This document shows positions 1-35,602 of a DNA stretch of 46,875 nt, one piece after another (within the stretch, counting starts at the first letter, position 1; each line of letters begins with the position of its first letter). Under the pieces are notes generated by a model that was not told the origin of the DNA, did no database searches, and saw nothing but the letters and a program-made list of their open reading frames with translations. The position numbers and the translations under genes are program-made. This stretch comes from a virus (taxonomy: Duplodnaviria; Heunggongvirae; Uroviricota; Caudoviricetes). The DNA is taken from the IMG/VR virus record IMGVR_UViG_3300033068_001916; one strand, given 5' to 3'.

Positions 1-347
1 AATGGAATTCTATTTTTTCTCAATTCCACCATGAATCTAGAAACTACATCTTTAGCAATCGCTTTAGGTTTTGGATCGGCAGCTGGTTTATCTCTTCTTA
101 TAGGACTAGGTCTTTGAGGTGATTTCCCAGGGGAAGTTCCAGGTTTAATTGTAGGTGCTGGTTTTGAGGGAGCTTCTTGTCCTGAAGCTTTAGGTTTTGG
201 ATCGGCAGCTGGTTTATCTCTTCTTATAGGACTAGGTCTTTGAGGTGATTTCCCAGGGGAAGTTCCAGGTTTAATTGTAGGTGCTGGTTTACTTGGCGCC
301 TCCTGTGGACTACCCGCTAAAAACTCATCAATTTTTGTATAAATCAT
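1..347 (-). CDS. Pro/Lys-rich repeat protein, runs off the left window edge
   Basis: Not in the track. ATG at 347 (minus), open to the edge: MIYTKIDEFLAGSPQEAPSKPAPTIKPGTSPGKSPQRPSPIRRDKPAADPKPKA, module repeated, then IAKDVVSRFMVELRKNRIP. Confidence 0.8.
   Translation of the reverse strand, partial: MIYTKIDEFLAGSPQEAPSKPAPTIKPGTSPGKSPQRPSPIRRDKPAADPKPKASGQEAPSKPAPTIKPGTSPGKSPQRPSPIRRDKPAADPKPKAIAKDVVSRFMVELRKNRIP
61..290. repeat. Direct repeat, 104 bp identical, period 126 bp
   Basis: 61-164 is identical to 187-290 and encodes a 42-aa tandem module. Confidence 0.95.
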
Positions 348-369
348 AACTATTATTATTTTTATATGT

Positions 370-383
370 GGATATATATATCC
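370..383. promoter_or_regulatory. Palindromic GGATATATATATCC, putative bidirectional phage (late-type) promoter motif
   Basis: Perfect palindrome between divergent genes (347 minus, 405 plus). GGATATATA recurs at 25592, 29625-29633 (minus) and 45700. Confidence 0.55.
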
Positions 384-404
384 AAATCTAATATTATAAT
401 TATT

Positions 405-2060: not shown

Positions 2061-2102
2061 TAGATATTCTAAAATTACTGAACCAATAAAACACAAATAA
2101 AA

Positions 2103-3371
2103 ATGGAAAAAACACAAAAGGTAATAAGATTCGAGGAATATATTCTTGAGGCTAGAAAGAGATGGGATAATCTGAATGATAAAACCAGCGATATCTATAG
2201 AGCATTCGAAGAAAGCAACGAGGGTAAGGACCTAGCTTCTATTGGTGTTTATGTAGAGGAAAGAACTCCAAGTGTTCTTATATTCAAAAGAAGAGGTGGT
2301 CCAATGGCAACTGTTGAGGCATGGAAAGATGGAGATGGTAAATATTGCTATGAGTACACATCAAGTAAAAAGGGTGTTGAAAGATACAATCTTTCCAGAT
2401 TTGATACACCAACTGCATGTCTAAGAGGATTTCTTTTAAGAATCATAAGAAACAATATACCAGCCGCTATTATACCTAAAAAAGACATACCTAGTCTTAA
2501 CTTTAATGAGCTTGTTCCGATCGGGTCTCAAATGGCATTTCCTGAAATACTTTCTAGAATGAAAGGTGCGATAGGAGGAGAGGAATTAACAGACCTTGAT
2601 GCTAATGCAGTTCAGAAATTACCTATCATACAGAATCTTGAAGATATGGGAATGGTTGGTAGAAGAATTGATAACAGAGAAACTATTATTAAAAAAGTTG
2701 ATATCATTTCTCCTAAGTATAAATTCTATTCAAGAGCAGCATTTAGAGTTGGTGAGATATACGGTAAAACAATTGCCGGTATATTAAAAGTTAAATATGA
2801 CGATCTTAAAAAATCAAGTAAAGGTAAGGGACTATTATTTGATGATGGACAGGAAATATGGAGAGTTAATAACTCTAACCGTCTTCCTCTTAATAGTATT
2901 AATTATAGAACTGGTGACAATTCTGTTAAATGTAACATCCAAGACGAGGAAATATTTGGTTCTGTTTTTGTTTCTATATTCATTAGAACATTCAAGAGAG
3001 CTAAGGGAAGATATGAAAATGAAAAGTTAATAAATCCTAATTCTTATATATTAAGAAACGAGGGTCAGGAAACAATTGACGTTGCAACTGAGCTCAATGG
3101 ACTTTTATCTGATTACTTTACTGAGGCTGCAGGAAGATTGGAACCTACAATATTCATTAACCCTGAGGATGATGACAACAGACCTATAATGGATAATGCT
3201 AATGCATTATTAATTAAATATCTTATGAAACATGGATCGTCTGAGATAAGAGAGAGAATAATGAAAAATTCGGATCTTGATGAGCTTGTTTCGATTACTA
3301 CTAAACACGAGGATATTGACGATGCAACTAGAAAATTAATTAGAGTTTCTAGAGCTCTTAGATTCATTTAA
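2103..3371 (+). CDS. Hypothetical protein with capsid-targeting-like N-terminus
   Basis: 422 aa ORF; N-terminus KVIRFEEYILE; C-terminus RKLIRVSRALRFI. Confidence 0.75.
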   Translation: MEKTQKVIRFEEYILEARKRWDNLNDKTSDIYRAFEESNEGKDLASIGVYVEERTPSVLIFKRRGGPMATVEAWKDGDGKYCYEYTSSKKGVERYNLSRFDTPTACLRGFLLRIIRNNIPAAIIPKKDIPSLNFNELVPIGSQMAFPEILSRMKGAIGGEELTDLDANAVQKLPIIQNLEDMGMVGRRIDNRETIIKKVDIISPKYKFYSRAAFRVGEIYGKTIAGILKVKYDDLKKSSKGKGLLFDDGQEIWRVNNSNRLPLNSINYRTGDNSVKCNIQDEEIFGSVFVSIFIRTFKRAKGRYENEKLINPNSYILRNEGQETIDVATELNGLLSDYFTEAAGRLEPTIFINPEDDDNRPIMDNANALLIKYLMKHGSSEIRERIMKNSDLDELVSITTKHEDIDDATRKLIRVSRALRFI

Positions 3372-3616
3372 TGGAAGAGGTCAGCGAAAGAAAAAAACAG
3401 GATGTCTGTGAAGGATGCGGTAAACAGATAGCTGATCCTGAAAAAGAATGTCCAACATGCGGGACTTTTCCGCATAAGGCATATCACGAAAGAGCAGCAG
3501 CTAAAACACTAAATATTTCTAAGTGGGTTCAAAGCTCACCTGCCATGCAGCCAAATCAGAAATTAAGTGAAAATTTACCACCTCTGAGAAATATAATATC
3601 ATTTGATGATTTTTAA
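3371..3616 (+). CDS. Small zinc-ribbon protein
   Basis: CxxC...CxxC (CEGC, CPTC); start overlaps upstream stop. Confidence 0.65.
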   Translation: MEEVSERKKQDVCEGCGKQIADPEKECPTCGTFPHKAYHERAAAKTLNISKWVQSSPAMQPNQKLSENLPPLRNIISFDDF

Positions 3617-3647
3617 AAAAATTCCGGCACTGTCCGGAATTTTTTTT
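3615..3647. terminator. Intrinsic terminator, possibly bidirectional
   Basis: aaaaaaattccgg-cactgt-ccggaatttttttt. Confidence 0.8.
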
Positions 3648-3667
3648 GATATGTGAGTAGAATATTT

Positions 3668-4438
3668 ATGGAAAGAAAAAAAATAGGAATTGTAATATTA
3701 GCTACCAATTCGTACTTCGTACTTGGTATTAGATTTATAAAGAAATTCATTCATCACTATAAAGGTGATTGCGAGATTAAGTTCTACTTTTTCTCAGATA
3801 CGGATCCTTCCGATTATCTACAGGATTGTATAAATTTTGAGTATCACGAATCCAAACATAATAGCTGGGTTGATGCTACCAATGATAAATTTAGAAATAT
3901 AATCAATCTATCCGAATGCAGTAGTGATTATTTATATTATTTTGATGCTGATACCAGCGTATCCAAGGATTTTACTGAGGAATGGTTTATCGGCGATCTA
4001 GTAGGTGGTGAACATTATGGAAATAAAACGTGGCTAGCTAATGGAGTTGGATTTGATAGATTTGAATTGTCGAAGGCTTATGTTCCTTTGGATAGCACTT
4101 TACCGTATACCTATCATTATGGTGCATTCTTTGGCGGATTGAAGGGCAAGGTTGTTGATTTTTGTAAAACTCTTAGAGAATGGCAGATAGAGGATAAAAA
4201 AATACCATATGAACCTGGTGTTAATGATGAGAGCTACATAAATGCTTATTTTCATTTTAATCCTCCAACATATACAGTTTCATCTGAGAATTTCCAATTT
4301 GATATAAGCCATAAGGGAGGAATAGGTGAAACAAGAAACACAGATCTTGATATATCTAGGCTTAAATCGGAGATGCTTGGTTATAGAGACTTCACTTTCG
4401 ATATAATGGACAATGTAATAATACCGATCAACCGATGA
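3668..4438 (+). CDS. Glycosyltransferase family 6 (ABO-like)
   Basis: KIGIVILATNSY, YFDAD (DxD), YHYGAFFGG and NDESYINAYF match GT6 motifs. Confidence 0.8.
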   Translation: MERKKIGIVILATNSYFVLGIRFIKKFIHHYKGDCEIKFYFFSDTDPSDYLQDCINFEYHESKHNSWVDATNDKFRNIINLSECSSDYLYYFDADTSVSKDFTEEWFIGDLVGGEHYGNKTWLANGVGFDRFELSKAYVPLDSTLPYTYHYGAFFGGLKGKVVDFCKTLREWQIEDKKIPYEPGVNDESYINAYFHFNPPTYTVSSENFQFDISHKGGIGETRNTDLDISRLKSEMLGYRDFTFDIMDNVIIPINR

Positions 4439-5127
4439 TAAATTATCCAATAGTATTAACAAATATGAATAGACTTTCCACGTGTAAAAAAATGGTGGAG
4501 GATCTTTTTAAGCTTAATGGAAATAGCAGAATTAGTATAATAGATAATGCTTCGACATATCCGCCATTGCTCGATTGGTATCGTGAGATTGAAAGTGATG
4601 TTAATATTATAAGGAATCAAGTAAATGAAGGTCCATGGGCATTTTTCTATGGTGGAACTTTTTCTAGTATAGATGATGAAATATATGTATATTCTGATGC
4701 TGATCTTGAGCTGAATCCAAATATGCCATATAATTGGCAGGAGATAATGCTAGATTATATTAAAAAATATGACAGGAAAGCTTCTTTGGCTCTTAGAATA
4801 GACGATATACCAGATTCGTATGAATTTAAGGGAAATATACAGGATCATCAGAGTGTATGCTGGTATGACAGTGGTGAAGAGAATGTTTACAGAGCTATAA
4901 CCGATATGACATTCAGTATGGATATAAAATCAAAGGGTCATAGATATGATAGTGTTAGATTGGGTGGAGATTTTATGTGTAGACATATACCATGGTACAT
5001 AGATTTTAGTAATGTATCAGAAGAGGAAGAATATTATCTTAAAAATATAAATAGAGGGTACGATCAAGCAATGTATACATCTCTCCATTATGATAAATTA
5101 GTGCAAATTACCAATAAGTTAAAATAA
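4435..5127 (+). CDS. GT-A fold (family 2-like) glycosyltransferase
   Basis: IIDNASTYPPLLDWY and YVYSDAD (DxD) motifs. Confidence 0.7.
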   Translation: MINYPIVLTNMNRLSTCKKMVEDLFKLNGNSRISIIDNASTYPPLLDWYREIESDVNIIRNQVNEGPWAFFYGGTFSSIDDEIYVYSDADLELNPNMPYNWQEIMLDYIKKYDRKASLALRIDDIPDSYEFKGNIQDHQSVCWYDSGEENVYRAITDMTFSMDIKSKGHRYDSVRLGGDFMCRHIPWYIDFSNVSEEEEYYLKNINRGYDQAMYTSLHYDKLVQITNKLK

Positions 5128-5149
5128 ATTTCTTTTTATTTTTTTAATC

Positions 5150-6248: not shown

Positions 6249-6872
6249 ATGAGAATGCCGATGAATAATTTTGATCAAATAAGAGATCTGCTGGATTTTT
6301 CTATCCCCGGTACCTTTTATTTTCTTCAAATACTAAAAAGACGTAAGGATAATCCGGATCTCGGGAAGGATATGATACACATAGCTGACTATTATATAGA
6401 CAGCTTAGTTAAATATGATGACCTGAAACCAATGATAATCAGACAATGCGAAGCAGAGAATGCTAGAGCATACTTCAGACTTAATCGTAGAGATGAAAAA
6501 CGTGTCGCTAGCGAGGCTTTAAAGCTTATGGTTGAATATGTGTTGTCTGAAAATTATAAGCCGGCTAGGAGCGTCTATGCATCATGTGCGGGTAAGTATC
6601 CGTCGGAAAAAAATAAGACATGGATAGTTGATTTGGATTGGGACGGAATACCACAAGGATTCACTAAAGAGATTTATATAGATTCCGTTATTTTTTCAAT
6701 TGAGTCGATAACCAAATCATACAAACCCGATGTTATCCAGAATATAACAAAGATACAAACTATGAATGGTATGCATCTTATAGTTAGTCCATTCAGACTG
6801 GATGAATTCGAAAAGCATTGGCCAAAAATAGACGTACATAAGGATAATCCAACTTGTTTATATCAACCTTAA
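6249..6872 (+). CDS. Hypothetical protein with AEP primase-polymerase-like motifs
   Basis: WIVDLD (DxD) and TMNGMH motifs; family assignment tentative. Confidence 0.45.
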   Translation: MRMPMNNFDQIRDLLDFSIPGTFYFLQILKRRKDNPDLGKDMIHIADYYIDSLVKYDDLKPMIIRQCEAENARAYFRLNRRDEKRVASEALKLMVEYVLSENYKPARSVYASCAGKYPSEKNKTWIVDLDWDGIPQGFTKEIYIDSVIFSIESITKSYKPDVIQNITKIQTMNGMHLIVSPFRLDEFEKHWPKIDVHKDNPTCLYQP

Positions 6873-7332: not shown

Positions 7333-7683
7333 ATGAGGGACCCAAATTTTAAAATAGGACAGATTGTTTATCATCGGGATATTTACGATCACAGAGAACC
7401 TCTAAAAATAGTAGGTATAAGAGAGACTGAATTAGAATTGGAAGGTGATTATTCAGGAGGAACCCACGGGGTTAGACAGAAACAATGGATGCCGATAAAA
7501 GGTGTCTCAAGAATTAGAGATCATAAGTACAAGAAGGAATGCAGAGACTTTGCAGTTGGAGTTGATGAATTAGCAAAACCTATTACTGACAGAAATCAGG
7601 ACAATATGACAAAAACTATGTTTGATTTGCTTGACATGGTTTTTAAACTTACTAATGACGTTTCACTTAATCCTGAGTCCTAA
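7333..7683 (+). CDS. Hypothetical protein
   Basis: 116 aa ORF in the operon. Confidence 0.65.
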   Translation: MRDPNFKIGQIVYHRDIYDHREPLKIVGIRETELELEGDYSGGTHGVRQKQWMPIKGVSRIRDHKYKKECRDFAVGVDELAKPITDRNQDNMTKTMFDLLDMVFKLTNDVSLNPES

Positions 7684-7685
7684 TT

Positions 7686-7901
7686 GTGGATTTAAAACTA
7701 TTTTTTACATTAGAAATAAACGAATGGAGAAGGAGATGGGAATTTATACCTAATGATGATGTAAGTTCAATTTGTTATTCAGTCAGTTTTAGTGATGCAG
7801 AGAATGAGGATTCTGCCTGGGTAATACTAGATCGGGCTGTTAGAAAAAGTTCCTCGTTCCACTTCAAAAAATTTTATTTTATAGATATACTTAAAGAATG
7901 A
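7686..7901 (+). CDS. Hypothetical protein, last gene before the array
   Basis: 71 aa ORF, GTG start; resembles cassette ORF 11076..11261. Confidence 0.55.
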   Translation: MDLKLFFTLEINEWRRRWEFIPNDDVSSICYSVSFSDAENEDSAWVILDRAVRKSSSFHFKKFYFIDILKE

Positions 7902-7923
7902 CCACAAAACTTAAAATTAATAA

Positions 7924-7961
7924 AAACTTTATGTGGTATTTCACATATACCTTGTTATAAA
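7924..7961 (+). repeat. Half attC-like site H0 (right arm only)
   Basis: 37/38 nt identical to the right arm of H5 (9768-9805); no left arm upstream. Confidence 0.8.
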
Positions 7962-7972
7962 CTGTAAAAATT

Positions 7973-8176
7973 ATGAAATTAATAAAAAATATAGTAAAAA
8001 CTGATTTTATAACTTCTACAAATATACTTTTACTAAAAGGTCAGGAAGTTAGAACTATTTACACTCCTGATTCTGTTCACGGGGATAGATTTATAGATAT
8101 TTGGAGGTGCATTGATGGTTCGTATTGTGGTGGCTTAAATCCAAGATTAGAAGCTGATTATTTAGAAGAAATTTAA
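7973..8176 (+). CDS. Cassette ORF C1, hypothetical
   Basis: 67 aa, between GTTA 7954 and TAAC 8208. Confidence 0.65.
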   Translation: MKLIKNIVKTDFITSTNILLLKGQEVRTIYTPDSVHGDRFIDIWRCIDGSYCGGLNPRLEADYLEEI

Positions 8177-8207
8177 TATTAAACGCATTTTTGGATAAAC
8201 TTTTACA

Positions 8208-8336
8208 TAACGTTCGAGTGCTTTACGTCCGTTGTGGCTAAATAAGCACTAAACTTTCCTGTTATCACGAAATTAAACTGATGCAAAACAATAATTAAAT
8301 CAATCACAATGTAGCAATAGCGTGTAATTGCTGTTA
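8208..8336 (+). repeat. attC-like site H1 (129 bp, chimeric)
   Basis: Left 85 nt are 81/85 identical to H12, but the right arm differs and does not pair with the left arm. Confidence 0.75.
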
Positions 8337-8348
8337 TAAGTAGCTTTT

Positions 8349-8630
8349 ATGATTAGAAAATATAAAATAATAGCAGAAGTAGAAATAGATATTCAAAAGA
8401 TTTTTAAAGACAATATAAAAGATTATATAGAAGATGATAGTATTTCAGATGAAGCGTATGCAACTCAATCTATCTATGGCGTAATACGAGATGGATGTAC
8501 TGAACAAGTAAAGGATAGATGTGAGTGGATGTTTAAAGACTGTTACGACCAGATAAAGCACCATAAGGAAGTAGATGTTTTAATTGGTAAAGAAATACTA
8601 AAAAGTCTAAAGATAAACGTTATCGAGTAA
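8349..8630 (+). CDS. Cassette ORF C2, hypothetical
   Basis: Flanked by gttataagtaGct and agTtacttataac. Confidence 0.7.
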   Translation: MIRKYKIIAEVEIDIQKIFKDNIKDYIEDDSISDEAYATQSIYGVIRDGCTEQVKDRCEWMFKDCYDQIKHHKEVDVLIGKEILKSLKINVIE

Positions 8631-8639
8631 AGTTACTTA

Positions 8640-8767
8640 TAACGTTTCCACAGCTTTGCGAGGTTGCGACCTAAAAACTTAAAATTTACAAACACAAAAT
8701 ACACTTAAAATGAGCAAAAATATTTCAAATACAGACCAAACCAAGCAATCTTGCAAAATTGGTGTTA
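8640..8767 (+). repeat. attC-like site H2 (128 bp)
   Basis: tttgcgaggttgc pairs with gcaatcttgcaaa; contains ATG 8710. Confidence 0.8.
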
Positions 8768-8964
8768 GTGGCAGTCTTTCTAAACGTGAAAAGCTATCAC
8801 TTTTATCAGCCGATATTTTTGCAAGGAGAAAAGATTATAATTTTCATTTAACAAGTGAATTGTGTGCCGTTATTTGGCTTTTGGGTAAAGGAACTAAAAA
8901 CGAATATGATTGTAAGGAAATTATAAATTCTGTTTATTCACAGTTCTTTCAAGATTGCCACTAA
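8710..8964 (+). CDS. Cassette ORF C3 with hairpin-encoded leader
   Basis: Starts inside H2, reads through GTT as Val (KIG-VSGS), stops at the TAA of TAAC. Confidence 0.7.
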   Translation: MSKNISNTDQTKQSCKIGVSGSLSKREKLSLLSADIFARRKDYNFHLTSELCAVIWLLGKGTKNEYDCKEIINSVYSQFFQDCH

Positions 8965-9259
8965 CGGTTGCAAATAAAAATATGTAAAATTAACGGATAT
9001 GGAAGATAAACTAAAAAAACATTTGAATTTTTGTAAAAAGTATCCAGAAACAATAGTAGGATATGAACAAGGTATAAATGTTTCATATTATTTGATGGAA
9101 GGGAACACACCACAAGTGGATTATTTCAAGGTTGGTGATTTAGTTAAAATGTATAATGAAAATCCAAATGTTTTTTCTGAATATAAAAACTTAAAAGATG
9201 ATTGGAACGATTTAATAACCACTGAAGGTAGTTAATTTTATTGTTTTTATTTGTTGTTA
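8962..9259 (+). repeat. attC-like site H3 (298 bp) with an ORF in its loop
   Basis: Left arm caaataaaaatatgtaaaattaac pairs with right arm gttaattttattgtttttatttg. Confidence 0.75.
8999..9235 (+). CDS. ORF inside the loop of H3, hypothetical
   Basis: 78 aa; the stop TAA is supplied by the right arm. Confidence 0.65.
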   Translation: MEDKLKKHLNFCKKYPETIVGYEQGINVSYYLMEGNTPQVDYFKVGDLVKMYNENPNVFSEYKNLKDDWNDLITTEGS

Positions 9260-9284
9260 TGTTCTCGTTTTAATGGAACATAAC
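9256..9284 (+). other. Empty 29-bp inter-site segment C4
   Basis: gttatgttc-tcgttttaatg-gaacataac. Confidence 0.8.
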
Positions 9285-9407
9285 GTTGAAGCATAACTGT
9301 AGTTTAGGATAAGTAAGCCTAATCTATCGAAGTTAAAAACCAAGTTCACAAGTACAAAAACAATTATAAATCAAGCCTGATACCTAAATTACTGTTATGC
9401 AGTGTTA
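9281..9407 (+). repeat. attC-like site H4 (127 bp)
   Basis: gcataactgtagtttagg pairs with cctaaattactgttatgc. Confidence 0.8.
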
Positions 9408-9434
9408 GGGTTAGGTTTTTTAAACATTTACATT

Positions 9435-9719
9435 ATGAAAAGCGAGGAATATAGAATTGTATTAAACAATGTGTTTGAAACAAAAGAAATTGGAAAAGAA
9501 TATTTTGACAGAATTTTATTGGATTTTGCAATGGCATACCATAAAGAGCAATTAGGTATACTTAATGAAAACACTTTTAATAAAGAAAAGTTTGGCGAAT
9601 TAGCTATTATTTTTTTAAATGATTTGCAAAATAAAGAGATTAATTGTAAACATAATTTAGATATAAACGGAGAATGTTTAAATAATTTCTACCAATGGCT
9701 GTGTAAAAATTACAGCTAA
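9435..9719 (+). CDS. Cassette ORF C5, hypothetical
   Basis: ATG 9435; stops at the TAA of TAAC; segment ends only partly complementary. Confidence 0.65.
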   Translation: MKSEEYRIVLNNVFETKEIGKEYFDRILLDFAMAYHKEQLGILNENTFNKEKFGELAIIFLNDLQNKEINCKHNLDINGECLNNFYQWLCKNYS

Positions 9720-9801
9720 CGACTGGGTATATGTGAAGTACCCAACGACAGACTTAATAATTAGTAGAAACTTTATGGGGTATTTCACATATACCTTGTT
9801 A
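9717..9801 (+). repeat. attC-like site H5 (85 bp)
   Basis: ggtatatgtgaagtaccc pairs with gggtatttcacatatacc. Confidence 0.85.
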
Positions 9802-9816
9802 TAAAACGTTTATTTT

Positions 9817-10104
9817 ATGGTAGAATTTAAAAATCCTTTGGTTAGGGTAAGATGTTTGGAATGTAGAGAAGAACATTTTATTGAAATGAAACATATTGGA
9901 ACTGATAAAGAACAAAGAAGTATTGGTTTTGAATATGAACACATATATAGAGGTGAATTAAAATGTTCTCATTGTGGGGAAGATATGAGATTATTAACAA
10001 CGATATTTGAATTTCCAAAAGTATTTTTAAATTATCACGAAACGAATAATGAATCTTGTTTAGTGATGGATGATATTACAGATGATTCGTTAAATGTTTT
10101 ATAA
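9817..10104 (+). CDS. Cassette ORF C6, zinc-ribbon protein
   Basis: CLEC...CSHC; flanks gttataaaacGttta and taaaTgttttataac. Confidence 0.7.
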   Translation: MVEFKNPLVRVRCLECREEHFIEMKHIGTDKEQRSIGFEYEHIYRGELKCSHCGEDMRLLTTIFEFPKVFLNYHETNNESCLVMDDITDDSLNVL

Positions 10105-10361
10105 CGTTTTGCAAATAGGCTTAGTAAAATTAAACTTAATGAAATATAATTATGAAAGGCAAATTACGAGAAATTCAAGCATACAGTAGTAATTCAAGTG
10201 ATGAATTGGATTATAAAAATAAATACTGGTTTCATCAATGGATTGGAAAAACAACTGCTTTAATTGAAGATGAGCATGGGAAATTGATAAAAGCTAAACA
10301 CACAGAATTTCGTTTTAAGACGGATGCTGATGTTTAATTTTATTGAGCCTATTTGCTGTTA
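10102..10361 (+). repeat. attC-like site H6 (260 bp) with an ORF in its loop
   Basis: gcaaataggcttagtaaaattaaac pairs with gtttaattttattgagcctatttgc (two G:T). Confidence 0.8.
10152..10337 (+). CDS. ORF inside the loop of H6, hypothetical
   Basis: 61 aa; the stop is supplied by the right arm. Confidence 0.6.
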   Translation: MKGKLREIQAYSSNSSDELDYKNKYWFHQWIGKTTALIEDEHGKLIKAKHTEFRFKTDADV

Positions 10362-10386
10362 TGGCATCGTTTTAATGTACCATAAC
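10358..10386 (+). other. Empty 29-bp inter-site segment C7
   Basis: gttatggca-tcgttttaatg-taccataac. Confidence 0.8.
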
Positions 10387-10497
10387 GGTTTGCAGATAAA
10401 AGCAGTTTTAAACTAAAATTAAATAATATGGACGAAAGTAAAATTATGGAAGATAACTCAAATAGAAGTGATGAAAAATTGCTTTTATCTGCTGTTA
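10383..10497 (+). repeat. attC-like site H7 (115 bp)
   Basis: gcagataaaagcagtttt pairs with aaaattgcttttatctgc; contains ATG 10428. Confidence 0.85.
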
Positions 10498-10682
10498 TGC
10501 GTAGTGCTTCTGAAATAGAAGAACGACTACGATGTGCGTTGGCTGGATTTGAACACTCAAAAGAATGTGGTGATATTGAAACAGCAAAAGAATATCAGAA
10601 AGACGCTGGTGTTCTATTTTGGGTGTTGGGTCGTAGTGGTAGTTATGAATATAAGGATGGTAAAATTACGTTGTGTGATTAG
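10428..10682 (+). CDS. Cassette ORF C8 with hairpin-encoded leader
   Basis: Reads through GTT as Val (LSA-VMRS). Confidence 0.7.
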   Translation: MDESKIMEDNSNRSDEKLLLSAVMRSASEIEERLRCALAGFEHSKECGDIETAKEYQKDAGVLFWVLGRSGSYEYKDGKITLCD

Positions 10683-10691
10683 CATTACGCA

Positions 10692-10820
10692 TAACGTTTT
10701 GCAGCTTCATTTCAGTTGCGTACCTAAGCACAAAGAAAACAAATAATCACTTAATAAAATTTAAAAAAATGAACAATTCAGATACAAACCAAGCGAAGCA
10801 ATTGAATGAAACTGCTGTTA
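10692..10820 (+). repeat. attC-like site H8 (129 bp)
   Basis: gcagcttcatttcagttgc pairs with gcaattgaatgaaactgc; contains ATG 10769. Confidence 0.85.
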
Positions 10821-11071
10821 ACAGTAGTATTTTTTATAACGCTTTTATAGGTAAAAAAGATTCAAACGGAATTGAATTAAAAAACGGAGATAATATAATT
10901 ATTGAGGTTTGTAAGCCTGATGGTGCTAATAGAAATGGAGTTTACCACAAAGGACAAATAATATATGAAAATTGTTCTTTCTCAATTAAAATGAAAAGAA
11001 GTGAAGAAACATTTGATACAAATCCTTTATCAAATTATGCTTCATATTGTAAAATAAATTTAAACAATTAA
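10769..11071 (+). CDS. Cassette C9 ORF a with hairpin-encoded leader
   Basis: Reads through GTT as Val (ETA-VNSS). Confidence 0.7.
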   Translation: MNNSDTNQAKQLNETAVNSSIFYNAFIGKKDSNGIELKNGDNIIIEVCKPDGANRNGVYHKGQIIYENCSFSIKMKRSEETFDTNPLSNYASYCKINLNN

Positions 11072-11075
11072 TAAA

Positions 11076-11261
11076 ATGGACTTAAGAAAACAATTCAAAG
11101 TTACAGACGATGTAGATAATAAAAGATTCGTCTTTGATTCAGTAGACAATAATTCTTGTTCTTATACGGTTGCGTATTACGAATGTGATTCTGACGAGTC
11201 TAATGCTTGGATTTGTGTTTGGAAAGCGAAAAAAGGAGAAATTGAACGAGCTTCTGTTTAA
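11076..11261 (+). CDS. Cassette C9 ORF b, hypothetical
   Basis: Second ORF within one segment (gttaacagtaGtatt ... aataTtactgttaac). Confidence 0.6.
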   Translation: MDLRKQFKVTDDVDNKRFVFDSVDNNSCSYTVAYYECDSDESNAWICVWKAKKGEIERASV

Positions 11262-11270
11262 TATTACTGT

Positions 11271-11318
11271 TAACGTCTGATGATAAACAATCGTTTTAAT
11301 GTTGTTTATCATTTGTTA
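11271..11318 (+). repeat. attC-like site H9 (48 bp, minimal)
   Basis: atgataaacaa-tcgttttaatg-ttgtttatcat. Confidence 0.8.
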
Positions 11319-11385
11319 TGTGTAGTTATCATTCTGGAAACATCTTATAAAAATACAGATATAATAAACAAAAATAAATAAATAT

Positions 11386-11907
11386 ATGAAACTAATAAAC
11401 GAAACTTTCTTAATTGATACCTTTGATAAAGTATTAAAATCAGGTGATTTACAAAAATTGGTAAATGTTAAAAAATCAGAATCTAATGAATTAGAAGAAC
11501 ATTTGATTTCTATTTCAATTACTTCTGATCAACATAAATTGATTAGATCCCTGAATATAGATGAAAAAACGGAAGAGTATCTATTATCTGAGCTCAAAGA
11601 TTATTTTTTCAAAAAAATACTAGATTTTGTTTATTCCAACTCGACAATATTAGATAAGAACGAGTTGTATCAGAATATAGATAATCAAATAGTGATAGGT
11701 AGTTCTGGTGCAATTATGGATATTCCTGAAAATGTATCTACGATTTTAGATTATAATAAAAGTTTCAGTGACAAAACATTAGTAGTCACAGATAGTGTTG
11801 ATTTAATTTTAGATTACAATTCGATAAAAATACAAACAATTGGTATGGGAGGATTTGCTCCTAAGATGATTTTGAAATTTAGTTTTTGTTTAGCTGACAC
11901 AGAGTGA
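11386..11907 (+). CDS. Cassette ORF C10, hypothetical
   Basis: 173 aa; flanks pair at 16/18 plus two G:T. Confidence 0.7.
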   Translation: MKLINETFLIDTFDKVLKSGDLQKLVNVKKSESNELEEHLISISITSDQHKLIRSLNIDEKTEEYLLSELKDYFFKKILDFVYSNSTILDKNELYQNIDNQIVIGSSGAIMDIPENVSTILDYNKSFSDKTLVVTDSVDLILDYNSIKIQTIGMGGFAPKMILKFSFCLADTE

Positions 11908-11917
11908 TAATTACACA

Positions 11918-12046
11918 TAACGATACTCAGATATATTTAGGTTTTCATTTTTAATATATACTAAAAATAATTTAACAATATGAAAAATAATAAACATGTA
12001 GAAAGTTTCGGAAAATTCAATGAAAACTTGAATATATCTGATGTTA
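11918..12046 (+). repeat. attC-like site H10 (129 bp)
   Basis: tcagatatatttaggttttcatt pairs with aatgaaaacttgaatatatctga; loop contains ATATATACTA and ATG 11980. Confidence 0.85.
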
Positions 12047-12228
12047 GTGAGAGTAAAAAATCAAATCTAAAAATAAATAAATTTCTTGAGGAATTAACAA
12101 TAATATCTCAAAAGTATAATATTTATTTAGATACAACTGATGATATGTTTATGACTGATGATAGTGGTGATATTGGTAGTATTAAATATGACGACAATCT
12201 AAATAAATATATTTATCAGAAATATTGA
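11980..12228 (+). CDS. Cassette ORF C11 with capsid-targeting-like leader encoded by H10
   Basis: MKNNKHVESFGKFNENLNISD-VSES. Confidence 0.7.
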   Translation: MKNNKHVESFGKFNENLNISDVSESKKSNLKINKFLEELTIISQKYNIYLDTTDDMFMTDDSGDIGSIKYDDNLNKYIYQKY

Positions 12229-12242
12229 TTTTTAATTATCAC

Positions 12243-12360
12243 TAACGTTCGATGGCTTGTAGCAGAACGTATAATTAAAAACAAACATTACAGACACAAA
12301 AGAATTATTAACCAACGATGGCAAAGTAGCCTAAAGTAGTTTTGCTACAAACCATTGTTA
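12243..12360 (+). repeat. attC-like site H11 (118 bp)
   Basis: atggcttgtagcagaac pairs with gttttgctacaaaccat. Confidence 0.85.
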
Positions 12361-12374
12361 TAAACAGTTATTTT

Positions 12375-12680
12375 ATGATTATAGTAAACTATTACCGAGA
12401 AGAAGATTGCAACCCTGAAACAGATGGTTATCATTTGCATTTAGCTGGTGTAATAAACGATACTTTAGATTTGCAATATGATATACAATTAATTACAGAT
12501 TGTATTGATAACGATATTAATTTTGAACCTAAAAATGGTATTTTATACGAATTACAATTGACAAGAGCAACTATTCAAGCAGACCCAGTTGATGAGCCAG
12601 CTTTTGCAATTAGAGAAATTATTGAATTAAAAAGATGTAAACATACTGGCGAATTTTCTCCTGAGTTAGTTCGGCTATAA
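12375..12680 (+). CDS. Cassette ORF C12, hypothetical
   Basis: ATG 12375 (track ORF starts at TTG 12342). Confidence 0.65.
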   Translation: MIIVNYYREEDCNPETDGYHLHLAGVINDTLDLQYDIQLITDCIDNDINFEPKNGILYELQLTRATIQADPVDEPAFAIREIIELKRCKHTGEFSPELVRL

Positions 12681-12687
12681 TTGTTTA

Positions 12688-12816
12688 TAACGTTCGAGTG
12701 CTTTACGTCCGTTGTGGTTAAATAAGCACTAACCTTTCCTGTTATCACGAAACAAAACTGATGCAAAACAAATTTAATATTAAACCTAAACCCACAATGG
12801 CGTAAAACACTTGTTA
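12688..12816 (+). repeat. attC-like site H12 (129 bp)
   Basis: agtgctttacgtccgttgtgg pairs with ccacaatggcgtaaaacact. Confidence 0.85.
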
Positions 12817-12841
12817 TGCCTAGTGCTTAAAATCAGAAATT

Positions 12842-13096
12842 ATGCAAACAAAAAAAGGATGGCATAAATCAGGACTTGATTTAACAGAATATTTAGATGA
12901 ACCTTGTGAAATTAACGAGGAATTATTTAATTACATACTAGAATGTACAGCTCCACAATATTTAGATTACGGATTAGGACAAACTGGAGAAGCTGAAAAA
13001 CACGAAGATGGTGTTGGATATTATATGACAGTTTCTTTCGTAAATAACAAGCACTTTTATTTAGGAATTTTACCAGAGTTCGTTCAGTCGCATTAG
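12842..13096 (+). CDS. Cassette ORF C13, hypothetical
   Basis: Flanks gttatgcctaGtgc and gcaTtaggcataac. Confidence 0.7.
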   Translation: MQTKKGWHKSGLDLTEYLDEPCEINEELFNYILECTAPQYLDYGLGQTGEAEKHEDGVGYYMTVSFVNNKHFYLGILPEFVQSH

Positions 13097-13099
13097 GCA

Positions 13100-13228
13100 T
13101 AACGGACGGCGTGTATGAGAAGTGGCGTGCCCACAAACACTAATATTAACTAAAAAACACTAACAAACCCAATAAATACAGTATTTAACAAGTGTGCCCA
13201 AAGTAGCCATTTTTTATACACGATGTTA
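13100..13228 (+). repeat. attC-like site H13 (129 bp)
   Basis: cgtgtatgagaagtggc pairs with gccattttttatacacg. Confidence 0.85.
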
Positions 13229-13258
13229 GTAGCTGTGTTTATTAAAGAATTTTAAAAT

Positions 13259-13483
13259 ATGGGAGATTTATTAGAATTAATGCAAGAATTTGAAAAAAGA
13301 AACAACACTTCAATATCCTTAGATTTATGTAGTGATGGGTCAGGAACTTTAAAAGAGTTTTGGGATGGTGATGAAATAAAATCGTTTGAAAATTCGTCTG
13401 AATTACGCTCGTTTTTAGCGAACGGAAAATTGAAAATGAAAGATGGTCGTTCTGTTAAACCTATTAAGATAGTGGCTCAATAA
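13259..13483 (+). CDS. Cassette ORF C14, hypothetical
   Basis: Flanks gttagtagctGtgtt and aacaTagctactaac. Confidence 0.7.
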   Translation: MGDLLELMQEFEKRNNTSISLDLCSDGSGTLKEFWDGDEIKSFENSSELRSFLANGKLKMKDGRSVKPIKIVAQ

Positions 13484-13492
13484 CATAGCTAC

Positions 13493-13618
13493 TAACGTTT
13501 TGCTACTACAAGCAGTAGCGTGCTGAAAAGCCTAAATTATCGGAGTTTGCCCGAACAAAGCAAGTGCAAAAAAATAATAACCAAAGCCAAATGAAGCTAT
13601 TGATTGTAGTAGCTGTTA
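13493..13618 (+). repeat. attC-like site H14 (126 bp)
   Basis: gctactacaagcagtagc pairs with gctattgattgtagtagc. Confidence 0.85.
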
Positions 13619-13645
13619 TACAACGGTTTTTAAACATCATTAATT

Positions 13646-13915
13646 ATGAAAACTAATAAACAATATAGATTTAAAGACAATCCAAAAGAAAAAGAATTTC
13701 ACGATAAATTCAAAGAAATGTTTGAAAGTAACGGAGTGACAGATAAAACTCTTTCATCAATAGTTTTTGGATGGAAAGATGATAGACAAAATGTTCCTGC
13801 AAAATATCTAACAGAAAAAGAAAAAGATATTTGCTTAAATATAATACAATGGTTAGGTTCTCCTGTTGGAAGCGGATTTCTTCGTGACTGCGGATTTTCT
13901 GAAACTGTTGTATAA
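13646..13915 (+). CDS. Cassette ORF C15 (recombinase-proximal), hypothetical
   Basis: Flanks gttatacaacGgttt and aaacTgttgtataac; stops at the TAA of TAAC. Confidence 0.7.
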   Translation: MKTNKQYRFKDNPKEKEFHDKFKEMFESNGVTDKTLSSIVFGWKDDRQNVPAKYLTEKEKDICLNIIQWLGSPVGSGFLRDCGFSETVV

Positions 13916-13968
13916 CTATATTATATATGTAATAAAATGTAACCCGTTAATTTTCAACAAGTTATATA
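13913..13968 (+). other. Candidate attI-like insertion site
   Basis: TAAC not followed by the usual hairpin; contains aaaatgtaac-cc-gttaatttt and a GTTA 8 nt before the recombinase ATG. Confidence 0.45.
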
Positions 13969-14772
13969 ATGAAAAATCAAAAAATTATAAAGATCTGTAA
14001 AGAAAAGTTTATATATTTAAACTATTCACCTAGAACAAGAGATAATTATATATCTCACATAAAACATTTTTTAGAAAGCTTAGAGGATAAACAGATCGTA
14101 CATTGTAATTCTTCTGATTTTCAATCATATTTGGATAATTACGACTTTACATCAGTCTCTCAACAAAACCAAATTATTAACTCTATTAGATTCTTATACA
14201 AAGAAGTATTGAATAAAAAGTATGATAAAGTTTCCTTTAGGAGGCCTAGATCCGAAAAGAAATTACCTAAAGTAATAGATGGTAATTTTATTAAAAAACA
14301 ATTAGGTAGTATTAAAAATCTAAAACATAAAGCGATACTCACCTTAACATATTCAGTCGGATTAAGAGTCTCCGAAATAGTAAATCTAAAAATTATAGAT
14401 ATTGATTCTAAAAGAATGTTAATTCATATAAAAAATGCTAAAGGTCGAAAAGATAGAATTGTACCTTTATCTCAAATTGTTTTAGAACTATTAAGAGAAT
14501 ATTTCAAAGAATATAAACCAAAAGAATTCTTATTCAATGGTCAAAACTCCCTACAATACTCAGTAGGGAGCTGTCAAAAGATTTACAAAAAGTATATCGA
14601 TAATAAATCATCTATACACACTTTAAGGCATTCCTCATTCACAAATTTATTAGAATCGGGGACAGATTTAAGAATAATACAGAAGATTGCGGGACATTCG
14701 AGTTCAAAAACAACAGAAATTTATACTCACGTTTCTAACAACCTTTTATCCAGGGTTAAATTACCAATATAA
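13969..14772 (+). CDS. Tyrosine recombinase/integrase, compact Xer-like, putative cassette integrase
   Basis: Intact catalytic set: GLRVSE, AKGRKDR, HTLRH, AGH, EIY; N-terminal SAM-like region YSPRTRDNY; no IntI insertion. Confidence 0.95.
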   Translation: MKNQKIIKICKEKFIYLNYSPRTRDNYISHIKHFLESLEDKQIVHCNSSDFQSYLDNYDFTSVSQQNQIINSIRFLYKEVLNKKYDKVSFRRPRSEKKLPKVIDGNFIKKQLGSIKNLKHKAILTLTYSVGLRVSEIVNLKIIDIDSKRMLIHIKNAKGRKDRIVPLSQIVLELLREYFKEYKPKEFLFNGQNSLQYSVGSCQKIYKKYIDNKSSIHTLRHSSFTNLLESGTDLRIIQKIAGHSSSKTTEIYTHVSNNLLSRVKLPI

Positions 14773-16214
14773 TGACTACGAAGAGAAAGAAAAAACCAAT
14801 AGTTGATATAGATGTTCTAAATTCAGATCAAAGGGAAGCTTTTGAAAATCTGAGAGACTTTATATGCGACACCAGTGACGAAAATGTTTATGTTCTTAAA
14901 GGATGGGCAGGTACAGGTAAAACATTTTGTATAAGTGTTCTTGTTAGGTACATTTTAGAAGTCGTTCATCCCAAAAGTGCTTGGTATAAGATAGCTGTAA
15001 CCGGACCAACAAACAAGTCGGTTAGAGTTATAAAGAAAACTAGTAATCTTAGGAATCCTAGAGTTACGTTCCAAACTATACACAAACTTCTTGGACTAAC
15101 AGAGAAGATAACAAATGATGGGCAACAGGTTTTTGTGAATCAGGGGAAAAATTTCAAACCTCAGATCAACTCGATTAAGCTTTTAATTATAGATGAGGTT
15201 TCAATGCTTAATGATGAACTTTTCCACGAGGTTCTTAAATATAGAGACAAGCTAAAGATTATCTGTATGGGAGATCCCGCACAAATCCCGCCGGTTGGAA
15301 AACCTGACTGTATTCCCTTCAGAGACGAGCTAGCAGATGTATATGGTATAAAAACTATCCAGCTGAAAAGAATAATGAGACAGAAGGAGGGTAATGCAAT
15401 AATAGAATCATCCGTTAAAATTAGAGAGGATCTTTGGTCTGAAAGAAATCCGGTTCCCACAGTTACGTCTTTGAATAGCCTAGGTGAGGGTGTAGAATTT
15501 TTAAATCTCAACGATAGTGAAACCAGAAAAGGATTTGGTGATATACTTTCCAAATATTTTAAATCTGAAGAATTCAACAAGGATCCTGAATATTGCAAAA
15601 TAATCGCATGGAGGAATAAAACTGTTACCAGCATGAATAACATCGTCAGAAGGATTCTTTTTGGCGAGGAAGAGAGTAAAACAAAAATTTTGGTAGGTGA
15701 GAAATTGATTGCCAATACACCTATAATCATACAGGGAAATCTTATATTATTTAATACCAATGATGAATTTTCAGTTGAATCGACAAATATAAGAGAAAAA
15801 AATATGGCTCTTAAAACATTCTCCCCCGTTGTCGAGGTTAAACTAAAATATTATGATGCAGTTGTTAGTTATCTGAATGACGAAGACGAGATTGAAAAAA
15901 CATCAATAGAGATTCTCCACGAGGACAGTCAGATCGAATTTGCTAAGATTGCAAATCTTCTTAAATTGAAGGCGATAGAAAAAAAAGGTAGAGACAGGAG
16001 CTGGCTTGATTATTATGATTTTATGAGAAACTTTGCTGATGTGAGCTTTGCATATGCTATAACTGCACACAAAAGTCAGGGAAGTACATATAACACGACA
16101 TTTGTAATTGAGGATGATATCGACGAAAACTATAATGTCGTTGAAAGAAATAGGATTAAGTATACTGCTTATACAAGATCAAGCAAGAAAGTTTATGTTT
16201 TAAAAAGATTTTAA
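14772..16214 (+). CDS. dda: SF1B DNA helicase, Dda/RecD2-like
   Basis: GWAGTGKT, IIDEVSM, GDPAQIPPV, YAITAHKSQGST, YTAYTR. Confidence 0.85.
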   Translation: MTTKRKKKPIVDIDVLNSDQREAFENLRDFICDTSDENVYVLKGWAGTGKTFCISVLVRYILEVVHPKSAWYKIAVTGPTNKSVRVIKKTSNLRNPRVTFQTIHKLLGLTEKITNDGQQVFVNQGKNFKPQINSIKLLIIDEVSMLNDELFHEVLKYRDKLKIICMGDPAQIPPVGKPDCIPFRDELADVYGIKTIQLKRIMRQKEGNAIIESSVKIREDLWSERNPVPTVTSLNSLGEGVEFLNLNDSETRKGFGDILSKYFKSEEFNKDPEYCKIIAWRNKTVTSMNNIVRRILFGEEESKTKILVGEKLIANTPIIIQGNLILFNTNDEFSVESTNIREKNMALKTFSPVVEVKLKYYDAVVSYLNDEDEIEKTSIEILHEDSQIEFAKIANLLKLKAIEKKGRDRSWLDYYDFMRNFADVSFAYAITAHKSQGSTYNTTFVIEDDIDENYNVVERNRIKYTAYTRSSKKVYVLKRF

Positions 16215-16253: not shown

Positions 16254-16275
16254 CAAAATAAAAATAAAAACATTT

Positions 16276-16770
16276 ATGAAAAAATTTATTGAAAATTTGA
16301 TCTTCGGATCTAGATGGTTACTTATACCATTCTACATTGGTCTTATTGTAGTGATGTTCATTTACACCTTTGTCTATACGAAGGAGATATTTCATCTTCT
16401 AACAGAAATTGGACACCTAACAAAGGAATCAGTTATGTTGATGATTCTGGAAATAGTCGACATTGTAATGATAGCCAACCTTGTTAAGATGATTATAACA
16501 GGAAGTTATAATTCTTTTGTCGATAAGGGACACGGGGTTCAGGGAGAAAATGTTTCATCTGGAATGCTTAAGGTTAAAATGAGTACTTCATTAATTGGGG
16601 TTTCTTCTATACATCTTTTGCAAACATTTATTAATGCTTCAGCTACTAGTTGGGACGAATTGAATAAACAGATGCTTATACATGGATCATTCCTTGTCGG
16701 ATCTCTGATACTTTCAATAATTGATTATTTACACGAAAAAGCAGAGTCAAATGCAGGCGGACACCACTAA
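16276..16770 (+). CDS. yqhA: YqhA/UPF0114 family membrane protein
   Basis: SRWLLIPFYIGL, VDIVMIANLVKMIITGSYNSFV, LKVKMSTSLIGVSSIHLL. Confidence 0.75.
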   Translation: MKKFIENLIFGSRWLLIPFYIGLIVVMFIYTFVYTKEIFHLLTEIGHLTKESVMLMILEIVDIVMIANLVKMIITGSYNSFVDKGHGVQGENVSSGMLKVKMSTSLIGVSSIHLLQTFINASATSWDELNKQMLIHGSFLVGSLILSIIDYLHEKAESNAGGHH

Positions 16771-16945
16771 AAAATCGAGGGAACATCTGGTGATCATCAT
16801 AGATGATCTGGATAAAATACCACCAAAAAAATATTCTTGTCCATTTGAGAACAAGACAAAGGAGGAGGCAATAAAGGCTTCTAAGGCTCAATACGAGCTA
16901 AACAACAAGAATATCCATTACAAATCTTATTATTTTGAACATTAA
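16751..16945 (+). CDS. Small hypothetical protein
   Basis: Fills the gap between yqhA and the lipoprotein; start uncertain. Confidence 0.45.
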   Translation: MQADTTKKSREHLVIIIDDLDKIPPKKYSCPFENKTKEEAIKASKAQYELNNKNIHYKSYYFEH

Positions 16946-16957
16946 TTTATTTTAACT

Positions 16958-17413
16958 ATGAAGAATTTTTTCTATTTAATTCTGGCAATATTAATTGTCT
17001 CGTGTGTTGGTAACACCAAAAAAGGAAACGGTGAAACTTATGCAACCAAGGATAGACCTGGATATTGCTATCATGGAGATGATGGACTCTGGTATATCTA
17101 CTACTTGAACAGCACAACAGGAAGCTATACTTATGCAGGAACATCCCCAAGTTTTACGAATTATGACTCATCGGAAACTGTTGCATGGACTCCAACATCG
17201 GAAAATGTTTCCAATTTTGAATCTGTACCCGAAACTGTAGCTGATGCAATGTCGGAATCCACAGGAGAAAATGCAGGTGGAAGCGAAGCATCGGAAGCAT
17301 CTGATGGCGGAATGTCTGAATCATCAGGAAGTTCTGAAGGTGGGAGCGATTCCAGTGGAGGAGATTCAGGAGGAGGAGACGGTGGTGGAGATGGCGGCGG
17401 AGGCGGCGAATAA
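16958..17413 (+). CDS. Putative lipoprotein with Gly/Ser/Asp-rich tail
   Basis: Signal peptide with lipobox-like IVSC; C-terminal GGSDSSGGDSGGGDGGGDGGGGGE. Confidence 0.7.
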   Translation: MKNFFYLILAILIVSCVGNTKKGNGETYATKDRPGYCYHGDDGLWYIYYLNSTTGSYTYAGTSPSFTNYDSSETVAWTPTSENVSNFESVPETVADAMSESTGENAGGSEASEASDGGMSESSGSSEGGSDSSGGDSGGGDGGGDGGGGGE

Positions 17414-17429
17414 CCAAAAAATATCTATA

Positions 17430-17460
17430 AAAAAACCCAACTCTAAAGGTTGGGTTTTTT
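17430..17460. terminator. Intrinsic terminator
   Basis: aaaaaacccaac-tctaaag-gttgggtttttt. Confidence 0.85.
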
Positions 17461-34971: not shown

Positions 34972-35602
34972 TTTTATACCATACGAACTAGCGGAGAAAA
35001 TGAAATCTCTGGGATATGATGAACCCTGTCTTGCAATGTACTCTGATGAAGTTCTGGAAATGTGGCTTCAGGATCAATATGATTTTAGAGACATTGGACA
35101 GAATGATGGATTCCAATTTAAGAATTCAATGTGGGACGATTCAAGATTTGTAGCAGCACCTCTTTTTCAACAAGCATTTGATTGGTTTCTTGATAATTAT
35201 GGATTATTCGCTGAAACAACTCTATGGGGAGATGGTATAGGATACATGAGCAAGATCAAGGAGATAAGACAGGAGGAATTTAAAGAGGTCTATGATCTTG
35301 GATTTGCAACACCAAATAGGGGAATGCCAAATTGGAATAGAAGCATAGAGTCCTTAGCTTGTCTCAACAAGATAATTGAAATTGCTGAGTCTAAAAGCGA
35401 TCTTGATGAGAAAAGCTGGAGGGTACTAATAAATCCTATTGAAAGGGAGGATTTATTATTATCAATAAGCTCAACTTTACCCGATGATAACGAAACAACA
35501 GAGGAGAGATATAAGGAAACATATAACACCGAACATGGAACATATGAGGTTATATGGGAAAAGAATGATGATGAACCAATTGTTAGAAAATTTATAGGAT
35601 GA
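34961..35602 (+). CDS. Paralog-family protein 3 with C-terminal extension
   Basis: PYELAEKMKSLGY...APLFQQAFDWF. Confidence 0.75.
   Translation: MKNNFIPYELAEKMKSLGYDEPCLAMYSDEVLEMWLQDQYDFRDIGQNDGFQFKNSMWDDSRFVAAPLFQQAFDWFLDNYGLFAETTLWGDGIGYMSKIKEIRQEEFKEVYDLGFATPNRGMPNWNRSIESLACLNKIIEIAESKSDLDEKSWRVLINPIEREDLLLSISSTLPDDNETTEERYKETYNTEHGTYEVIWEKNDDEPIVRKFIG

Follow-up and report, generated by a model that had tools for sequence, protein, structure and literature searches.

A compact tyrosine recombinase without the IntI insertion as the probable enzyme of an integron-like gene-cassette array in a tailed phage

Canonical integrons, such as those of IntI1 and VchIntIA, combine a recombinase and a primary site with one-gene cassettes that are bounded by hairpins carrying TAAC/GTTA-type R boxes. 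The IntI recombinases are defined by an extra segment, and only 50 non-IntI recombinases were found near attC sites, which were treated as scattered (Cury et al. 2016, PMC4889954). Virulent phages, including one Polaribacter phage, are known to carry attC clusters without an integrase (CALINs), some sites of which can be used by IntI1; no phage recombinase was named (Qi et al. 2023, PMC9892861). Neither paper assigned a recombinase to these arrays. Here we analysed the IMG/VR virus record IMGVR_UViG_3300033068_001916 (Caudoviricetes), a stretch of 46,875 nucleotides (nt) which we refer to as the window, and in particular its open reading frame (ORF) at 13969-14772. We consider it likely that the product of this ORF is a site-specific recombinase which serves an integron-like gene-cassette platform carried by the phage. 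The parts of the proposed platform are as follows:

13969-14772, plus strand: compact tyrosine recombinase P0001 (267 amino acids), with an N-terminal SAM-like domain and a catalytic domain, without the IntI insertion
13913-13968, plus strand: attI-like junction; the last TAAC core (13913-13916) is followed by TATATTATATAT, with about 40 nt to the recombinase ATG
8208-13916, plus strand: array of small-ORF cassettes with imperfect hairpin sites (TAAC...GTTA) between them, from motif enrichment, strand bias, folds and a site detector
8640-8767, 9281-9407, 9717-9801, 10383-10497, 10692-10820, 11271-11318, 11918-12046, 12243-12360, 12688-12816, 13100-13228 and 13493-13618, plus strand: array sites found by the detector
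about 8208-8336, plus strand: further array site, found by eye

Small ORFs fill the 6 kb 5′ of the recombinase gene, and ATAACG is found within a few bases after each of them. The array region represents 13% of the window and holds 15 of the 29 plus-strand copies of this motif, while only 2 of the 8 copies of its reverse complement are found there. The stretches running from a TAAC to the downstream GTTA fold as long imperfect hairpins, with a small bulge right after TAACG. When the whole window was searched with the detector, 14 of the 15 plus-strand matches (11 distinct sites, the rest being overlapping alternatives) were located at 8.6-13.7 kb, with one exception at 6745-6786; on the minus strand it recovered the array sites in reverse and otherwise only 2876-3029 and 16400-16486. 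No Pfam or PHROG matches were found for ten ORFs, comprising nine cassette ORFs and the flanking ORF at 7333-7683. Short capped hairpins were also seen at 9232-9285, 10334-10387 and 11258-11311; these have a common loop, TCGTTTTAATG, and covarying stems.

We compared the window to 80 IMG/VR loci in which the recombinase is 62-87% identical to P0001; P0001 has thousands of metagenomic relatives. The recombinase was the only gene family common to all related loci. Upstream of it, and on its strand, 433 hairpin sites were found in 81 loci (1.03 per kb), compared to 0.11 per kb on the opposite strand, 0.086 and 0.056 per kb downstream and 0.069 per kb in shuffled sequence. At least 2 upstream sites were present in 53 of the 57 loci which had at least 1.5 kb of upstream DNA, so that homologues do show associated arrays, a point on which a first-pass annotation, made from the letters of this DNA alone, had staked its reading. 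The sites follow a common grammar: across 434 sites, TAAC is followed by G in 87% and GTTA is preceded by T in 94%, the unpaired bases on the 5′ and 3′ sides number (4,1), (5,1) or (3,0), and the lengths fall into classes of approximately 45, 85 and 125 nt. These arrays of imperfect palindromes with conserved outer boxes are of the kind which characterises integron systems. The carriers include complete phage genomes of 266-362 kb with terminal repeats.

The junction between array and recombinase gene is also conserved and consists of TAAC followed by TATTATATAT, approximately 50 nt 5′ of the start codon. By eye, TAAC followed by TAT(T/A)ATATAT in place of a hairpin could be seen 45-55 nt 5′ of the start in most of about 75 loci, and a strict attI-like pattern was matched in 50 of 81. 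As in an integron, there is a primary site beside the integrase gene at which cassettes join. Eight pairs of loci were ≥ 90% identical to the right of the junction TAAC and < 50% identical to its left, including L071/L072, in which the recombinase DNA is 100% identical, and L056/L058 (99.5%). Two cassettes of the window recur in the unrelated arrays of L068 and L045 at 88-90% identity; since the similarity extends from TAAC^G exactly as far as the following TAAC, each hairpin travels with the ORF located behind it. Among 42 shared internal segments, 21 had a left end within 10 nt of a site TAAC and 2 had one at GTTA. Contigs from other public samples gave further examples of such joints: in one from run X4, the cassette that starts at 9721 comes directly after the one that ends at 10695 (10691 joined back to 9717), with the joint at a shared ATAAC (shorter side 90 nt), and in one from run X2, in which the recombinase has 3 differences in 865 nt, a different left neighbour is joined to 13912 via a shared ATAAC. 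Several contig joints were ambiguous, as their sides measure just 20-30 nt or as they connect the two copies of repeat D3, and were not used. Parts of the window lack coverage in runs X1, X2 and X4, from which we draw no conclusion. These comparisons show a conserved module of recombinase, attI and array, strand exchange that maps to the TAAC core, and recent turnover of the array. In run X23, a minor contig (depth 13 vs approximately 90) has a short hairpin element directly at attI (11328/13913), which suggests array heterogeneity within one population. A hairpin element with the TCGTTTTAATG loop adjoins attI in L009, L010, L023 and L052 and in run X2.

P0001 itself contains the Pfam domains Phage_int_SAM_4 (PF13495) and Phage_integrase (PF00589) and has the tyrosine recombinase fold with a complete R-K-H-R-H-Y set (R133, K158, H217, R220, H243 and Y252, with K161 accompanying K158). 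All six catalytic positions are invariant in the family alignments A3/A4, which contain 13 phage and 27 bacterial relatives. In a MAFFT alignment, 84 residues separate the first catalytic Arg of P0001 from its HxxR His (R133-H217), compared to 131 in IntI1 (R146-H277) and in one Bacteroidota IntI, 96 in Escherichia coli XerD and 92 in XerC, reproducing exactly the values of 84, about 131 and about 96 which the first-pass annotation gave for P0001, IntI1 and XerD. The integrase of Cellulophaga phage Ingeline has the same spacing of 84, so compactness alone is not unusual.

The accompanying claim that the IntI-specific insertion is absent was borne out in several ways. Residues 19-178 of P0001 align to 18-180 of VchIntIA and residues 210-264 to 260-314, skipping IntI 181-259 and leaving about 48 IntI residues without a counterpart (phmmer against the PDB). 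The IntI model TIGR02249 matches P0001 in two stretches and reaches 151.3 bits, compared to a curated cut-off of 265, and the IntI-specific segment near patch III (IntegronFinder intI_Cterm) was not found in P0001. The AlphaFold model (m09a6a941346e; mean predicted local distance difference test score 84.7) is a plain two-domain recombinase in which a 16-residue loop (183-198) replaces the insertion, and its top Foldseek matches were VchIntIA (2a3v, 5.7e-13) and the archaeal XerA (4a8e). In VchIntIA the IntI-specific segment reportedly carries the I2 helix and W219, and W157 is said to touch the extrahelical bases as well; the position of W157 is occupied by Lys in P0001. Because P0001 lacks the insertion and is nevertheless linked to an array, any recognition of folded sites would have to rely on a feature different from the I2 segment of IntI. 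Candidates for such a feature are the invariant LF-G-Q ... YS..SC loop (188-202) and the SQQNQ helix (62-68).

The platform would thus be like canonical integrons in its recombinase, primary site and hairpin-bounded one-gene cassettes with TAAC/GTTA-type R boxes, in exchange at the core, in its ORFan cassettes, in having VchIntIA as the best structural match and in the IntI-like N-terminal domain of its enzyme. It differs from them in that P0001 lacks the segment of about 48 residues, scores under the TIGR02249 cut-off and falls outside the IntI clade, in that the cassette ORFs face the recombinase and are read with phage transcription, and in that it is carried by a large phage which is apparently not temperate. 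CALINs share with it the occurrence of attC-type arrays in phages and IntI-free genomes; however, the phage arrays described here are systematically tied to one clade of recombinases without the insertion. P0001 is also similar to XerC/XerD and XerA in its size and simple two-domain build. XerA was the best match both among NCBIfam models (NF040815, 169 bits, below the cut-off of 220) and by sequence in the PDB. However, P0001 is far under the cut-offs of the XerD and XerC equivalogs TIGR02225 and TIGR02224 (140.6 bits vs 329.6 and 335), the XerC/D clade is separate (100% support) and no dif-type single site was seen.

We next place P0001 among its relatives. The phage clade consists of sequences which are 62-91% identical to P0001. 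The best bacterial matches, among those listed (L092-L171), were 38-51% identical and without the insertion; they came mostly from Bacteroidota, with others from Bacillota and further bacteria. No copy of > 51% identity was present among the listed matches in GTDB species genomes, except for a partial one of 66% on a 2-kb fragment of a metagenome-assembled genome (MAG), and no close copy was found in 401 sampled Bacteroidota genomes, in which the best identity was 40-50%. The bacterial relatives co-occur with XerC and XerD in the three genomes checked, and they are the best match to the IntI model in genomes without an IntI above the cut-off; true IntI was found in 90 of 301 sampled Bacteroidota genomes. 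Hairpin sites are found 3′ of the bacterial insert-less recombinases on the opposite strand, at 0.21 per kb vs 0.03-0.04 per kb. Desulfitobacterium sp. Sab5 (L150:10726-18641) carries nine attC-like sites of 69-73 nt by such a recombinase, and in this locus, L169:11526-18482 and L117:12021-17412 attC-like arrays (ATAACG ... TGTTAT, 69-128 nt) lie 3′ of the recombinase. These three genomes have no IntI above the cut-off, and the sequences on either side of adjacent sites complement each other, as they do in integron cassettes. The bacterial enzymes are therefore like P0001 in lacking the insertion and, in some cases, in being adjacent to an array, but their arrays are 3′, on the opposite strand and chromosomal. 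Many of L092-L171 have about 75-110 (some about 270) additional N-terminal residues in their longest open frame, which had no Pfam match, and many of the MAG contigs stop < 300 nt from the 3′ end of the recombinase relative.

A tree of 88 sequences recovered the phage clade as monophyletic (98) and XerC/D as separate (100), with canonical IntI (100) nested among the insert-less bacterial enzymes. Comparison to IntI, XerC/D and phage integrases, proposed in the first-pass annotation as a check, thus gave a divided answer: the phage clade is separate from XerC/D, but it also falls outside the canonical IntI clade, and a wider grouping with IntI was not rejected. In the unconstrained search, XerC/D came out closer to IntI than the phage clade did, a placement which we do not rely on. 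A constrained tree, with XerC/D and the integrases of cultured phages set against the rest, was 3 log-likelihood units better (approximately unbiased test, p-AU = 0.54). On these trees, an arrangement in which the phage clade, the insert-less bacterial enzymes and canonical IntI lie on one side, away from XerC/D, is slightly preferred. The same annotation held that folded-site recognition by P0001 would require another solution or have evolved independently; recognition that does not depend on the insertion fits our results, while independent evolution is not favoured, as the best tree, which is unrooted, groups the phage clade, the insert-less enzymes and IntI.

Several points weigh against a cassette platform of this kind. 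The right ends of the shared segments are less sharp than the left ones, with 10 at TAAC, 6 at GTTA and 23 elsewhere. The sample runs were examined as assembled contigs instead of raw reads, and one of them, X23, is probably that from which the window originates. When site polarity was compared to that of the canonical Bacteroidota integrons L194-L199, the detector found few of their attC sites, in which the side of the bulge varies. The tree is unrooted and comes from a quick search, so that the exact placement of the phage clade is loose. That the substrate is a folded single strand is something we infer from the architecture of the sites. The integrases of the phages Ingeline, Freya and Leef are 34-39% identical to P0001. 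Lastly, the near-identical pair L032/L033 diverges approximately 30 nt to the right of a hairpin and not at TAAC, and some array turnover would therefore have taken place via other recombination.

The L032/L033 breakpoint, which lies where some cassettes have a Bacteroidota-type promoter box after the hairpin, is one reason to consider that P0001 could be a Xer- or Cre-like resolvase acting at a single site by its own gene, for example on concatemers, with the hairpins being terminator/promoter modules shuffled by homologous recombination. The PeSL elements of T4-type phages are modules of this type. Many arrays contain hairpins of the same families at 90-100% identity, which could provide the homology for exchange, and the best NCBIfam match of P0001, XerA, would suit a resolvase. 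However, the TAAC/GTTA boxes, the asymmetry of the bulge and the lengths are maintained in hairpins of unrelated sequence, the exchange points lie on a core of 4-5 nt which is common to the attI junction, and a resolvase would have no need of the polar array seen in 53 of 57 loci. We therefore regard this explanation as unlikely.

The similarity to the flavobacterial phage integrases could instead indicate an ordinary lysogeny integrase which inserts the phage genome at a host attB, with the array being unrelated. The data sources annotate P0001 as XerD/integrase, and the proteins called "integrase" in the Cellulophaga and Polaribacter phages have the same spacing of 84. These integrases share the compact spacing but belong to a different clade, and no polar hairpin array was found near those of Ingeline, Freya and Leef by the detector. 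No integrated copies (prophages) were found in the sampled host genomes, although this is not proof of absence: as described above, neither the listed GTDB matches nor the 401 Bacteroidota genomes contain a close copy other than the partial MAG fragment. In addition, the carriers include the complete 266-362 kb genomes with terminal repeats, P0001 has no arm-binding domain in Pfam, and the polar array and the attI junctions would be left unexplained. A lysogeny integrase is thus very unlikely. Freya isolates from one host strain differ in a block of small ORFs, amounting to 0 to 4.1 kb, immediately 5′ of a compact integrase (35% identical to P0001), and the sequence they share starts with a CTAAC core located 49 nt 5′ of the first codon of the integrase (L200 = Freya_10, 1-4150; matches H67-H83). 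Freya could be a culturable model.

In the cassette platform which we favour, P0001 would catalyse the exchange of cassettes between the array and the attI-like site (TAAC followed by TATATTATATAT). Each cassette starts with a hairpin composed of TAAC, G, a bulge of 3-4 nt, a stem, a loop, the return stem, T and GTTA. Conservation is limited to the TAAC/GTTA boxes and the hairpin architecture and does not extend to the sequence, and for this reason we suppose that P0001 may bind its sites as folded single strands, by analogy with IntI on attC. The single-stranded DNA would be supplied by phage replication, with no dedicated helicase. Viewed on the complementary strand, integrase, attI (G^TTA) and cassettes follow one another in the classical order, the one difference being that the recombinase is faced by the cassette ORFs.

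The first-pass annotation had coupled the recombinase to the helicase gene which follows it. This gene and the opposite border of the array region are as follows:

14772-16214, plus strand: Dda-like SF1B helicase P0002 (480 amino acids), a neighbour of the island described below and not a conserved partner
7684-7925, plus strand: left island border, consisting of a 230-nt segment shared with L204, followed by a diverged copy of the 5′ end of dda and by half a hairpin site

P0002 belongs to the Dda-like SF1B helicases (phrog_325, 1.7e-84; Pfam AAA_30, UvrD_C_2 and PIF1; T4 Dda 3upu in the PDB, 1.3e-14). The overlap of the recombinase stop with the helicase start is as the first-pass annotation described it (TAATG at 14770-14774), with TAA at 14770-14772 sharing its last A with ATG at 14772-14774. 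However, nine other adjacent ORF pairs in the window overlap in the same fashion, so this 1-nt overlap is not special. Of the 80 related loci, L005 is the only one in which Dda comes directly after the recombinase, and the recombinase directly precedes Dda in 1 of 30 Dda loci (57-94% identity), which is the same contig as L005. A P0002 homologue was not detected in 4 of 5 large recombinase-carrying phage genomes (E ≤ 1e-10), and in the fifth it is 27% identical and approximately 200 kb from the recombinase by coordinate. The adjacency of recombinase and helicase is therefore not conserved.

The closest relative of the window, L201, has a Dda which is 94% identical and is collinear with the window, with flanks of mostly 80-91% DNA identity. 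In L201 (3638-4010) the homologue of ORF 7333-7683 overlaps dda by TAATG and the block corresponding to 7674-14769 is missing. The island is also absent in L204 (3426-4011), which retains 230 nt of the left border together with a CCAATATAATG scar, while L202 (2175-4010) keeps 91 nt of the 3′ end of the recombinase gene and a second copy of the dda start. As this block is missing from close relatives, the array and the recombinase form a facultative 7.1-kb island, which is located at the start codon of dda and flanked by two copies of the 5′ end of this gene, at about 7899-7912 (the diverged copy, AATGACCACAAAAC; repeat D6 and the L201/L202/L204 junctions) and at 14771-14784. The Dda gene is a chance neighbour, a conserved phage gene at whose start the island sits. 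Apart from the island, 4453-5110 (ORF 4435-5127) and 16270-17460 (ORFs 16276-16770 and 16958-17413) are absent from the otherwise collinear L201 and are other accessory insertions or deletions.

A two-part machine, in which Dda unwinds DNA to allow the sites to fold for the recombinase, is hardly credible in view of these comparisons. The TAATG overlap is seen here and in L005/L203, but L201 uses the same overlap to join dda to a different upstream gene. The coupling claimed in the first-pass annotation is thus not supported, given that the two genes adjoin in just one of the 80 recombinase loci and one of the 30 Dda loci and that L201 and L204 are island-free, and its suggestion that the helicase exposes single-stranded DNA was rejected on the same synteny and on the four large carriers in which no homologue was detected. 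We also discarded Dda as the supplier of single-stranded DNA for the platform on these grounds.

The facultative nature of the island raises another explanation, that the recombinase chiefly moves the whole 7.1 kb between phages and that cassette exchange is secondary. Its absence in L201 and L204, where the flanks are approximately 80-90% identical, the 91-nt remnant in L202, the two dda 5′-end copies at its borders and the different contexts of the island among phages would all be in keeping with this. However, the borders do not have a TAAC/attI motif, the duplicated dda start resembles a product of repair or homology, and the junction variation is found inside the island, at attI. We find this explanation decidedly improbable.

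The window as a whole is DNA of a large phage of Bacteroidota, with genes nearly all on one strand and with relatives in IMG/VR. PHROGs identified two RNA ligases, HNH and homing endonucleases and a glycosyltransferase, and no Rfam matches or tRNA genes were found in the window. A repeat of 42-65 nt with TTTG and TAnnTTTG boxes, of the Bacteroidota promoter type, stands before gene blocks at 5136, 16219, 17482, 29636, 30828, 36971 and 44647; none of these repeats is inside the array. There is a tandem direct repeat of 120 nt (61-180 / 187-306, 94% identity), and the adjacent ORFs at 35599-35967 and 35967-36494 are paralogous.

In the literature searched we did not find a paper which links the insert-less clade to attC-like arrays. 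The extra segment is held to be necessary for reading folded attC sites, and it is absent from this array-tied clade. It is tempting, though we would put it at somewhat less than an even chance, to see here an insert-free capture of cassettes at folded attC-type sites. An insert-less lineage would then run integron-like platforms in large lytic Bacteroidota phages, and maybe some bacterial CALINs, and canonical IntI would be a later offshoot which gained the insertion. The system is open to experiment, with a small enzyme, short sites and natural variation in cultured Polaribacter phages beside a related integrase. If P0001 is active, the accepted structural account of folded-site recognition would be incomplete, and many arrays which have been classed as integrase-less may possess an integrase. 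Large virulent phages would then own a device for swapping small accessory genes, probably ones for host takeover or anti-defence.

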